DNA from: a candidate division WOR-3 bacterium
Lineage (GTDB): Bacteria > Hydrothermota > UBA3072 > B12-G15
Length of the DNA stretch: 25,715 nt
NCBI GenBank assembly: GCA_965649055.1
Contig: CBFGJG010000005.1
Coordinates: forward strand, 1 to 25,715
Direction: 5' to 3'
Part shown: piece by piece, positions 3,001 to 6,000 of the stretch
How the letters are laid out: every line of letters starts with the position of its first letter
Position numbering within the stretch: position 1 is the stretch's first letter
Program-made: the position numbers

Positions 3001-6000
3001 AAATCCTTGTTGAAGTGTTAAAAAAATATCAGGATGAATCTAAAATATATGTAATATATGAAAGAGAACAACCCTGCTTTCACATAACATTATTGTATTA
3101 AATAATCCTTGAAAAAAATTTTTTTAGATGTATATTTTTTCTATGATATACGGTTTAATAATGGCAGGTGGAAAAGGTGAAAGGTTCTGGCCTCTTTCAA
3201 GAGAAAGAAGACCTAAACAATTCTTGAAATTACTTTCAGATAATCCATTGATTATTGATACATATAACAGATTAAAATTGTTCATACCGGAAGAAAACAT
3301 AAGATTGGTCATTACTAAATCTCTGAAAGAGAATTTTATTGATTCAGGTTTTAAAGAAGATATACTGCTTGTTGAGCCATTCGGTATGAACACTCTTTAT
3401 GCCCTTGCATACGCATCTGTTTACTTTTACAGGAAAGATAGGGATGCAATTATCTATGCATTCCCATCTGACCATTTCATAGGAAATGTTGATATATTTG
3501 TTAATACAATGAAGAGGGGTGAGAAAGTAAAAGAATTAGACTGCCTTGGAACATTTGGTATATCACCAACAAGACCAGAAACCGGCTATGGTTATATTGA
3601 AGTGGGTGAAAAAATCGAAGAAGGATTTTACAAGGTTAAAAGGTTTACCGAAAAACCAAATCTTAGAACTGCAAAGGAATTTATAAAAACAGGAAATTTC
3701 TTCTGGAATAGTGGTATGTTTTTTTTCAAAGCAAAGACGATGATAGAAGAGATAGAAAATTTTCAACCTCAGTTAAAAGAAGCAATAGAAAACCTTATTT
3801 TAGATTTAAATGAAGAAAATCTATTAAAATTTTATTCAACCGGTAGCCCGATTTCTATTGATTATGGAGTAATGGAAAGAAGTGAAAAAGTATATATGGT
3901 TCAGGCTGATTTTCCATGGGATGATATCGGAACCTGGACTGCACTTGAAAGAATTGTATCGAGTGAAGAAGGTTCAAATATAAAGGTTGGTAATGTTAAT
4001 GCATATAATTGCTCAAATTCAATTTTCTTTTCAGAGAACGGGATTATTCTTGCTGAAGGTTTAAAAAATTACATTGTTGTTCATACAGATGATGCAACTC
4101 TGATATTACCAAAAAGTAAGGCACAGGAAATTAAGATGTTTCTTAAAGATATACCTGAAAAATTTTTATAAAAAGGAGGATGTATGAAAAAATTGTTTTA
4201 CTTTTTTTTAGTCCTTTCAGTTGTCGGTTGTATAAAACAGGTAAAGCCTAAAACTGATGTAACAGAACCTGTTTTTATTGAAGAAGATACAACCACGTAT
4301 AAACCCATAGATATTGTTAAGGATACAGTTCCTAAAATAACTGAAATTAATCCTGTTATTGAACCGCCAAAAATCGAGACCCAGAAATATATCTACAGGA
4401 TTCAGGTAGGGGCTTTTAAGACCGCAGAATATGCTGAGAGATTAAAGACAGAAATCAGTTCTCTATTTAAAGTGAATGTTCTGGTAAAGTATGAAGGTGG
4501 TTATTATAAGGTTCGAGTGGGTGAATTCAAGACAAGGACAGAAGCAGAAGGTTTTCTTAACAAATTAATAAACTCGGGATATAACGGTTTTATTAAGGAA
4601 GAAGAGATTAAATAATTTTGGTTCTCTGGGTTGCAACAAGAAATAAAGATAAAATTATCGAGATAAAAAGAATATTAAAAGATTTTAATATAGATATATA
4701 TTCATTACTTGACATAAATGAAAAAATTGATATTATTGAAGATGGTTCTTCTTTAAGAGAGAATGCTTTGAAGAAAGCTGAAGCACTATTTAGATTAAAA
4801 AAAGGATGGGTAATTGGTGAAGATACAGGGCTTGAAGTTGAAGCACTCAATGGAAAACCCGGTATATATTCTGCGAGATATAGTGGTGGTGATTACAAAG
4901 AAAATAGGTTAAAATTATTGAATGAAATGAAGGGGATGAAAAATAGAAATGCAAGATTTAAAACGGTTATTGCCCTGATTTCACCCGATGGAAAAAAATA
5001 TTTTTTTGAAGGAATAGTTAATGGCAAAATAGGAGAATGTGAAAAAGGGAATAATGGTTTTGGATATGACCCAATTTTTATACCGGAAGGTTCCGATAAA
5101 ACCTTTGGTGAGATGACAGGGGAAGAAAAGGACAGGTTCAGCCACAGAAAAAAGGCATTTGAGAAATTTGTTCAATTTATTCGGGGCGTAGCGCAGATGG
5201 TTTAGCGCGCCTGGCTTGGGACCAGGAGGTCGGTGGTTCAAGTCCACTCGCCCCGACTCCTACCACCGACAAAAGGGGTGTGGGGAAAAAGGTTTTCCCC
5301 ACTTACCTTTGAAGGGGGTATATTAAGGGGGAAATATGCATAATAAAAAAAATGAGTAATATTATATTTCCCCCTTAAAGCGAAACGAAGTGAAGCTCGG
5401 TGGTTCAAGTCCACTCGCCCCGACTCCTACCACCGACAAAAGGGGTGTGGGGAAAAGATGCTTTTTCCACTATTTTAGTAGGTAAGCAGGATATAAAAAA
5501 GTAATATTTACTGCAATATTCAAATTATTATCAAATTTTCCACTATATATATCAACTCTTCCAGTAAGAGTAAAGATTTTTATTGACAATTTTATTTTCT
5601 TGTTAATTATAATAATATGAAAAAAATAATTTTTTTAATTTTTATTCCTTTTATAACCAACGCGTTAAATACAAGAATAACATTGCTTACAGGTGGTAAT
5701 TATACAGATAGTTCTTTTGATTACCTCTTGTTTGGTTTTCTCGGAAAGCTTGAATTTTTTGATATTGTTGAAGGTATAGGTTTAGGTGGTTCAATATTTG
5801 AAAAGATTGGAATTTTTACATCTTCTGAACAGGAACTTTCAACCTATGAGTTATATCTCAACAAAGTATGGTTAAAGACCGAAGGAACATCTTATTTAAG
5901 TAAAGATTATACAATGTTAAATCTAATGTTTGGAATAAAGAAAAAATATCTGTCATATATAAATCAAATGAATGAAATTCCAGTGATTGAAAATTATTTA

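Follow-up and report, generated by a model that had tools for sequence, protein, structure and literature searches.

The window analysed here is the whole 25,715-nucleotide stretch of contig CBFGJG010000005.1 (C5, positions 1-25715), which belongs to a draft genome (G000) of 2.08 Mb with 31.6% GC that is 94% complete. On its forward strand an intact tRNA-Pro(TGG) gene is followed by a non-coding cassette and then by an exact copy of the tRNA's own 3′ end (Table 1). The last 24 nt of rdgB, a conserved upstream neighbour that lies outside the element, overlap the 5′ end of the tRNA gene. The arrangement of tRNA, body and duplicate had been recognised before and stands, and an antisense arm and a second, truncated copy behind the duplicate, both missed at the time, have to be added to it. 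Likewise, the repeat of 34 nt ascribed to this locus has to be replaced by one of 60 nt (5230-5289 = 5397-5456, exact; 63 nt with one mismatch), because the spacer, the arm and the first hairpin recur behind the duplicate and then decay. The truncated second copy is an older copy, and the loop of its decayed hairpin 1 resembles that of the tRNA-Ala copy. The inner stem of the intact hairpin 1 (5280-5302) scores terminator-like. Hairpin 2 has a loop that in the Ala and Pro(CGG) copies exceeds the one at C5 by about 34 nt, its arms are common to tRNA-Ser copies from another phylum, and the GCGAA-type tail motif recurs in other family members as well as in the tRNA-linked repeats (TLRs) of Escherichia coli. 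Outside the element, a sigma70-like promoter (5583..5610, forward strand), a consensus match only (10/12), lies before the next gene (5617-6213).

Table 1. Features of the tRNA-Pro(TGG) locus and its cassette in the window.
Feature	Position	Strand	Remarks
rdgB (non-canonical purine NTP pyrophosphatase)	4618..5205	+	TIGR00042 over cut-off
tRNA-Pro(TGG)	5182..5256	+	ARAGORN (gives 5182-5257); intact, CCA not encoded
Stretch complemented by the arm	5229..5237	+	tRNA positions 46-54, variable loop and T-stem 5′ strand
Spacer and antisense arm	5257..5272	+	arm 5262-5270, 9/9 complementary to 5229-5237
Hairpin 1	5272..5310	+	family-wide core (AAGGGGTGTGGGG...CCCCAC), three-base loop
Hairpin 2	5323..5378	+	15-bp perfect arms, 26-nt loop
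Tail motif	5380..5396	+	GCGAA-type repeats, directly before the junction
Exact duplicate of the tRNA end	5397..5423	+	tRNA positions 47-73, 27 nt
Second, truncated copy	5424..5471	+	identical spacer and arm (arm 5429-5437), decayed hairpin 1

ARAGORN predicts 40 tRNA genes in this genome, and behind four of them lies a hairpin cassette that is itself followed by a duplicate of the gene's 3′ end. The survey's finding that one shared element sits at all three tRNA-Pro genes and at tRNA-Ala(CGC), each time with a repeat that matches the host tRNA, was confirmed at all four loci, and so was the lack of a 3′ duplicate at any other tRNA (0/36 in a 24-nt scan of the whole genome with up to two mismatches). 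The exact in-tRNA duplicates measure 27 nt at Pro(TGG) (positions 47-73), 26 nt at both Pro(GGG) and Pro(CGG) (48-73) and 25 nt at Ala (49-73). In the order Pro(TGG), Pro(GGG), Pro(CGG) and Ala, the non-coding cassette bodies are 140, 141, 175 and 173 nt long and the repeat periods 167, 168, 202 and 200 nt. The bodies are similar, as proposed, with a measured identity over aligned columns of 83.6-96.5% rather than 87-93%. Even at T-loop position 59 the duplicate tracks its host, with G in C5 and A in C21/C22. The Pro(CGG) copy is split across two contigs, which probably join through an overlap of 103 identical nt. The hairpin 1 pattern occurs at six places in the genome, every one of them linked to a tRNA. 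Gene order is broken behind three of the four host tRNAs, an observation that we discarded because the genome is widely rearranged relative to other genera.

An arm complementary to the preceding tRNA lies within 14-16 nt behind each cassette-bearing tRNA of this genome, with 9/9 matching nucleotides at C5 and 8/8 at Ala (positions 44-51). When each arm is paired with all 40 tRNAs, the strongest partners of the Pro arms are the three Pro genes and that of the Ala arm is Ala(CGC); behind tRNAs without a cassette, the longest such antisense match is 6 nt. The two arms on C21 contain one mismatch each and keep only 4 unbroken nucleotides. The Ala arm matches A49 of its host, a position at which three relatives have G.

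The cassette is missing from the close relatives. None of the 11 orthologous tRNA genes in three genomes of the same family carries it, and at Pro(GGG) in same-family genomes an acyltransferase gene starts only 16-19 nt behind the tRNA; since this gene follows the tRNA directly, we regard these as empty sites in the evolutionary sense, in other genera. The reported absence from the class was borne out by the hairpin pattern (0/25 other genomes). The exact 24-nt body pattern had no match in the GTDB genomes, BLAST of the body against 272 genomes of the own phylum returned, beyond G000, just chance-level pieces of 18-44 nt, and a search of 40 relatives yielded tRNA parts and two 24-nt pieces only. 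The view that the element is known only from this genome and is lacking in metagenome contigs has nevertheless to be given up, as a second species and other phyla carry it.

In the second species, represented by two metagenome contigs that both end inside the repeat (L052 and L053), the cassette occupies the Pro(CGG) and Pro(GGG) loci. The flanks are 74-79% identical to those of G000 and the 67-nt core is 91-93% identical (4-6 differences); the arm is antisense over 10 nt, and an older left-end remnant lies behind the duplicate (in L053). Furthermore, contigs of run X2, in which the rdgB region is about 90% identical, join the tRNA-Pro end to the cassette, none of them bridging to the flank, and contigs of run X1 hold the long-loop variant. 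No circle, skip joint or same-species empty site was seen in the contigs of four runs, a type of data that drops rare forms. A third metagenome match (L054) was rejected as a family member since it is a chance match.

At least 49 distinct tRNA-linked loci from three phyla (as grouped by the tool) share the design, at tRNAs for 13 amino acids. The search pattern required neither the arm nor the duplicate, and 8/57 tRNA-linked hairpins of another architecture and without a duplicate (seven from Actinomycetota, one from Syntrophomonadaceae) were dropped from the family counts. No gene lies between arm and duplicate at any of the 49 loci, and the cassette ranges from 125 to 220 nt in 40 loci. A scan of GTDB genomes for the beginning of hairpin 1 located 20-45 nt behind a T-loop gave at least 118 stretches; among the 82 matches in the 80 loci examined, at least 21, labelled Omnitrophota or Planctomycetes, have the full hairpin and a duplicate of their own tRNA, all of these counts being lower bounds. 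The spread is patchy: the hairpin-only pattern occurs in 39/401 sampled genomes from the phylum of G275 (66 matches vs 5 for the reversed control) and in 5/65 genomes from the phylum of G272. Automatic classification assigned 33 of the 66 matches to a tRNA end with duplicate, 6 to a tRNA end at which no duplicate was found, 4 to a position before a tRNA and 17 to a core elsewhere, and 6 lacked the core. In the phylum of G272, two tRNA-Ser copies have both hairpin arms and the tail as in G000, with 80-82% identity over 60 nt. Remnant second copies behind the duplicate were detected by an automatic scan at 8/40 loci; the remnants are polar, older copies lying distal to newer ones. The core is also found away from tRNAs, in MITE-like units that are flanked by the 4-nt sequences CTAN or CTRG (G141, from the own phylum, has nine copies and G572 several), which implies that the core is cargo and that arm and tail form the tRNA-specific part.

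Across the 49 loci, the arm, antisense to a stretch within tRNA positions of about 43-66, follows its host. The mean arm duplex is -13.1 kcal/mol with the own tRNA vs -7.8 kcal/mol with tRNAs for other amino acids, and the own tRNA is the best partner at 27 loci and within the top tenth at 42. A permutation test restricted to a single locus for each of the 13 amino acids supports this co-variation (p 0.0005), with the reservation that p values from these loci, which include kin and are not independent, overstate the case. A duplicate of the own tRNA with at most two mismatches over positions 59-73 is present at 40/49 loci and exact at 37, and other tRNAs differ from the duplicate at an average of 7.8 of the 15 positions. 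At two loci even rare T-stem variants are tracked, GAGTTC at L203 and AAGTTC at L222. GAAC:GTTC pairing, compared with the AAC/GTT crossover core that closes a folded integron attC strand, occurs in 24/49 arms; it is absent from all four copies in G000, where the arm is complementary to the variable loop.

The arms fall into two registers, starting in the variable loop (positions 43-46, 23 loci) or in the T-stem (50-52, 25 loci), and there are two junction registers about 8 nt apart. With a variable-loop arm the duplicate starts at or before position 48 in 15/16 cases, and with a T-stem arm it starts later in 16/24 (Fisher p 0.0002, or 0.018 with one locus per isoacceptor, n=21, again overstated by kinship). 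Since arm register and duplicate start are coupled, the junction follows the arm and not a fixed position of the tRNA. Of 40 loci, 32 have an arm that pairs more strongly with the intact tRNA than with its duplicate, and one shows the reverse; part of the reason is that duplicates decay or contain small T-loop hairpins (12 flagged, of which 8 are clear by eye). Opposite the GA of T-loop positions 57-58, the arm itself reads GA in 11/24 cases, which represents a tandem G-A mismatch rather than decay.

Folding of the cassette was strong for DNA and RNA alike. For 5257-5423 we obtained z scores of -6.0 as DNA and -4.5 as RNA, and none of 200 shuffled sequences folded as well. RNAalifold on seven copies supported hairpin 1, including two pairs with changes on both sides, and misaligned hairpin 2. 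Three-base purine-N-A loops are known to be stable in DNA hairpins; in 40 bodies we counted 48 of them, compared with three four-base GNRA loops and one UNCG loop, a composition that suits DNA. Triloops of the reverse-complement type were counted too, and these 21 lie mostly in short chance stems. Every tRNA-linked copy is on the strand of its tRNA, and the tRNA strand gives the better fold in 40/40 cases. Both biases are also compatible with an RNA, and G-rich strands form better folds in any case.

We found no gene that could be assigned to the cassette as its helper. The 148 ORFs around 24 family loci are housekeeping genes or lack a family assignment, and none belongs to the integrase (within 3 kb), transposase or retroelement-type reverse transcriptase families. 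As tyrosine recombinases, G000 yielded two Xer-like proteins and one fragment at a contig edge. The genome also encodes three Y1 transposases, with neither a cassette nor hairpin 1 beside them, and three CRISPR-type cas1 genes with Cas2-like neighbours as judged by eye; no resolvase, RVT_1 reverse transcriptase or IS110 match was obtained in this 94% complete assembly. An integron integrase scored over the cut-off in 2/29 carriers vs 1/31 non-carriers and a Y1 transposase in 27/29 vs 25/31, the non-carriers having been picked by hand from pattern-negative genomes, so that no helper stands out from either co-occurrence. Guide pairing is used by IS200/IS605 elements, a likeness that we counted with the Y1 systems. 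Plasmids and phages gave no match over more than 26% of the query, and the family-core and right-end patterns had no match in viral contigs. The T-loop-plus-hairpin pattern matched viral contigs twice, both times without a duplicate, and hairpin 1 alone was seen in one giant-virus bin, without a tRNA.

Among known systems, the cassette resembles most closely the TLRs of E. coli, which have been known since 1978 and, with 22 copies spread over ten loci, still lack a known function (PMC8144298). These had been offered as an alternative to a mobile element; rather than competing with it, they share the same arm-and-tail design. As defined there, a TLR has an 18-19 bp 3′ end identical to the end of the upstream tRNA or rRNA gene and occurs in one to five copies per locus (PMC8144298). 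The element described here is likewise a non-coding unit directly downstream of a tRNA gene, with a copy of that gene's 3′ end (25-27 nt, exact at 4/4 G000 loci), with tandem copies (the partial second one at C5 and the remnants at 8/40 loci) and with a body common to different tRNAs. In K-12 DNA we found duplicates behind all eight tRNA genes examined and a body common to the Tyr, Lys and Pro loci. An antisense arm is clear at four of the eight, tyrT, tyrV, proK and lysQ (a perfect match of 13 nt at lysQ), and reaches 5 nt only at lysT, lysW, lysY and lysZ; no separate arm of at least 7 nt was found at the E. coli 5S TLR. Moreover, tyrT, tyrV and proK carry a GGATGAGAACC-type arm motif as in the Omnitrophota copies, and GCGAAG/CCGAAGG hairpins are shared as well. 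In contrast, the bodies have no significant match, the best E value among the matches listed being 0.018, for motif-level pieces of 10-28 nt in three K-12 regions. The main hairpins of G000 also lie between the arm and a duplicate of 25-27 nt, whereas those of E. coli lie inside the T-loop of the duplicate and leave 18-19 nt of it. The G000 element thus falls under the published definition of a TLR and has the same design, and common descent with the E. coli TLRs finds no support in sequence homology. The main text of PMC8144298, as far as a text search of it goes, mentions neither an antisense arm nor mobility. Our literature search found no account of the arm or of the cassette family, and the original TLR papers of 1978-1999, which lay outside that search, may mention the arm. 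We conclude that the cassette is real and a variant of a known yet unexplained kind, the TLRs.

Other systems share single traits. An intact tRNA with a displaced direct 3′ fragment from the T-stem region is also what the tRNA islands catalogued by Islander leave behind (PMC4383910), but the cassette has no integrase, measures 0.13-0.22 kb against a filter of 2-200 kb, uses many tRNA types per body and contains an additional inverted copy of the target. With the folded attP of CTX phage (XerCD) and the attC sites of integrons it has in common that no enzyme is encoded, that folding of an inverted copy of the site is predicted to give a double-stranded mimic containing an internal mismatch, and that the arrays are polar; attC and CTX phage are described as using a single strand exchange followed by replication (PMC4792948). 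Unlike these, the cassette targets a tRNA gene and not dif or attI and has neither phage genes nor an ORF; 27/29 carriers lack an integron integrase, and the sole candidate in G000 is the contig-edge fragment, of unassigned subfamily. REP/REPIN elements with their Y1 proteins (RAYT) offer small GC-rich hairpins with GAGCGAAGCGAC-type motifs, and Y1 genes are common in carriers, but the few copies, the target-matched arm, the 25-nt duplication and the lack of an adjoining Y1 gene set the cassette apart from what is described for REPs (PMC3733652).

We favour, with a probability of roughly 0.55, the interpretation that this is a gene-less, non-autonomous mobile cassette of the TLR type in which the arm, in single-stranded DNA, folds back onto the tRNA end. 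Mobility is suggested by the contrast between its absence from 11/11 orthologues and, by hairpin pattern, from 25/25 class genomes and a likeness of 82% over 60 nt to a tRNA-Ser copy in another phylum, and also by a core that is better conserved in the second species than the flanks, by the remnant second copies and by the MITE-like units that hold the same core. The survey's description of a non-autonomous integrative element with attL/attR-like ends can therefore be kept for the non-autonomous insertion at tRNA 3′ ends, which agrees with the patchy spread, the common body and the tandem remnants. Its classical part, attL/attR sites of a tyrosine integrase, finds no support, given the lack of an integrase within 3 kb of 24 loci, the two junction registers and the lack of a circle or skip joint in the contigs of four runs. 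In the proposed mechanism, the unit would move as folded single-stranded DNA. In an excised circle the tRNA-end copy would stand directly before the arm, and the arm could fold onto it to form a short double-stranded, T-arm-like site mimicking the target; such stems are predicted at -7 to -12 kcal/mol. An enzyme acting in trans, either a host Xer-like or other tyrosine recombinase or an HUH nuclease, would then join the unit to the tRNA gene where pairing with the arm sets in. A single strand exchange followed by replication, or an HUH nick with copying, would leave the tRNA intact, with its former end and any older cassettes displaced downstream, and once the unit has moved to another tRNA, its arm and tail might be matched again by template switching or gene conversion. 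Within this mobile interpretation we give a tyrosine recombinase about half of the weight and the HUH nick-and-copy route about a third. Against mobility count the lack of a circle, skip joint or same-species empty site in those contigs, of an autonomous version and of a helper that stands out; moreover, the E. coli TLRs are transcribed and processed (PMC8144298), and retargeting would require both the tail and the arm to be rewritten.

The strongest competitor is an interpretation that we rate as clearly less probable. The cassette may be a co-transcribed RNA module, made together with the pre-tRNA, in which the arm would bind either the precursor's T-arm or the decoy tail, the tail would direct processing and a small RNA would be released, in the manner of RttR and RrA/B/F in E. 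coli; it would spread between tRNA loci by duplication and gene conversion, with selection on the RNA keeping the arm matched. This would agree with the position of every copy on the tRNA strand, with a core that in the second species is better conserved than the flanking genes, and with the terminator-like hairpin 1. It would also agree with the predicted fold of pre-tRNA-Pro, which improves slightly from -32.9 for the cloverleaf alone to -34.1 with the arm on the T-stem (Ala shows no change). For E. coli, the rrn TLRs are described as giving defined RNAs that bind Hfq and CsrA, and the 3′ repeat has been proposed as an RNase E signal (PMC8144298); a TLR also lies behind 5S rRNA, which has no T-loop. 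Set against this are the patchy occurrence of the hairpin pattern (39/401 and 5/65 genomes, and 0/25 in the own class), the restriction to 4/40 tRNAs in G000 and the rarity of RNA-type tetraloops. Furthermore, an RNA function leaves unexplained why arm register and junction are coupled and why the core occurs in MITE-like units away from tRNAs, and deletion or overexpression of TLRs is described as having no clear phenotype (PMC8144298). In the RNA run examined, coverage was confined to tRNA parts, which favours neither reading. Motifs of single-stranded DNA and of RNA are in general hard to separate computationally (PMC5737381).

Two further explanations keep mobility and change the machinery. 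The loci could be scars of classical tyrosine-integrase islands that have lost their middle, or mini-islands with a double-stranded attP, the arm being a by-product of template switching at a quasi-palindrome. A tRNA with a displaced 3′ fragment is the signature of such islands, whose crossovers often fall in the T-stem region (PMC4383910), and the tandem remnants fit as well. We consider this unlikely, as no integrase lies near the 24 loci and the tyrosine recombinases found in G000 are only the two Xer-like proteins and the contig-edge fragment, and in view of the narrow size range (125-220 nt in 40 loci), of a single body at tRNAs for 13 amino acids, of two junction registers and of a G-A mismatch that is kept in the arm. 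Least probable is another target-duplicating enzyme, such as Cas1 or a casposase, a reverse transcriptase or an IS110-type recombinase. Casposons do target tRNA 3′ ends and duplicate them, and G000 has three cas1 genes; the Cas2-like neighbours of all three (by eye) speak against such a role, as does the absence of RVT_1, IS110 and resolvase matches from the 94% complete G000. Moreover, the cassette lacks the terminal inverted repeats, the casposase and the family B polymerase of casposons. In 10/40 loci, at least 8 of the 10 nt that directly follow the duplicate agree with the spacer, compared with 0.2% of cross pairs, as a target duplication of variable length would produce, but tandem remnants give the same match.

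Beyond the mobile cassette favoured here, we put forward tentatively that TLRs in general, including those of E. coli, are widespread miniature mobile elements of single-stranded DNA, in which an arm of 5-16 nt acts as a programmable guide that picks the tRNA and sets the junction while a host or other trans-acting enzyme does the joining. If so, they would constitute a gene-free, DNA-guided integration system that can be retargeted by rewriting one short arm, and the guide would represent a new way of aiming DNA insertion; if the arm acts on RNA instead, it would add a new layer of control over tRNA precursors. In either case, the occurrence of this arm-and-tail design in three further phyla turns the E. 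coli TLRs from a local curiosity into a testable class. Such units are dropped by island finders, being shorter than 2 kb and without an integrase, and so have remained uncatalogued. Rfam has no family for the cassette and listed no RF02937 match for the window copy; hairpin 1 of one Omnitrophota copy resembles this Clostridiales-2 family (RF02937), at 22 bits compared with a gathering score of 58.6.

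The hairpin core common to the whole family of tRNA-linked cassettes also occurs at positions other than the 3′ end of a tRNA gene (Table). It likewise stops exactly before tRNA 5′ ends, or shortly before start codons, in Omnitrophota genomes, and it is enclosed by MITE-like units with 4-nt CTAN/CTRG flanks both in G141, a genome from the same phylum as the WOR-3 bacterium, and in the genome G572. The G141 units start with TGT and end with ACA, termini reminiscent of IS481-family ends. A related hairpin lies 3′ of Actinomycetota tRNA genes, frequently in tandem (loci L064, L067, L093, L119, L129, L134 and L136); a duplicate of the own tRNA end was not found at these loci, and they were left out of the counts over the 49 tRNA-linked family loci. 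Several copies of a hairpin resembling the core are found away from tRNAs in a giant-virus bin (L055–L059), some of them with GCGAAG-type motifs upstream.

In another genome, G280, tRNA-Ser is followed by long arrays in which several hairpin modules are mixed with copies of the tRNA-Ser end (L186, L191, L192). Furthermore, the anticodon loop of tRNA genes at L241 and L215 is broken, as judged by eye, by apparent group I introns, and LAGLIDADG-like genes are close to two cassette-bearing tRNA genes.

In the window, the last 24 nt of rdgB run into the tRNA-Pro(TGG) gene. This gene starts a Pro-Arg-His-Lys tRNA cluster in relatives, and the cluster is interrupted directly after Pro in the WOR-3 genome (window and contig C15). 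The same genome carries a truncated Xer/integron-like recombinase at a contig edge; behind it come a short stretch that looks attC-like by eye, and methylase and nuclease-like genes. Palindromic repeats of a GTCATT-type family (~30 segments) and the ends of unassembled IS elements, which form two families of ~27 segments each, are spread over C7, C4, C11, C20 and many contig ends, and CRISPR-type repeat copies in the window are also present on C37 and C63.

Positions of the hairpin core outside tRNA 3′ ends and of other features
Feature	Source	Position or loci
Core before tRNA 5′ ends or start codons	Omnitrophota	L204, L215, L225, L240, L241, L244, L246; L197, L227
MITE-like units with core	G141	L296, L300, L303, L305, L307, L309–L312
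MITE-like units with core	G572	L216, L234–L237, L239
LAGLIDADG-like gene	L106	3451–4281
LAGLIDADG-like gene	L107	1232–2050
rdgB/tRNA-Pro(TGG) overlap	window	5182–5205
CRISPR-type repeats	window	53–183
Recombinase fragment	C6	1–560
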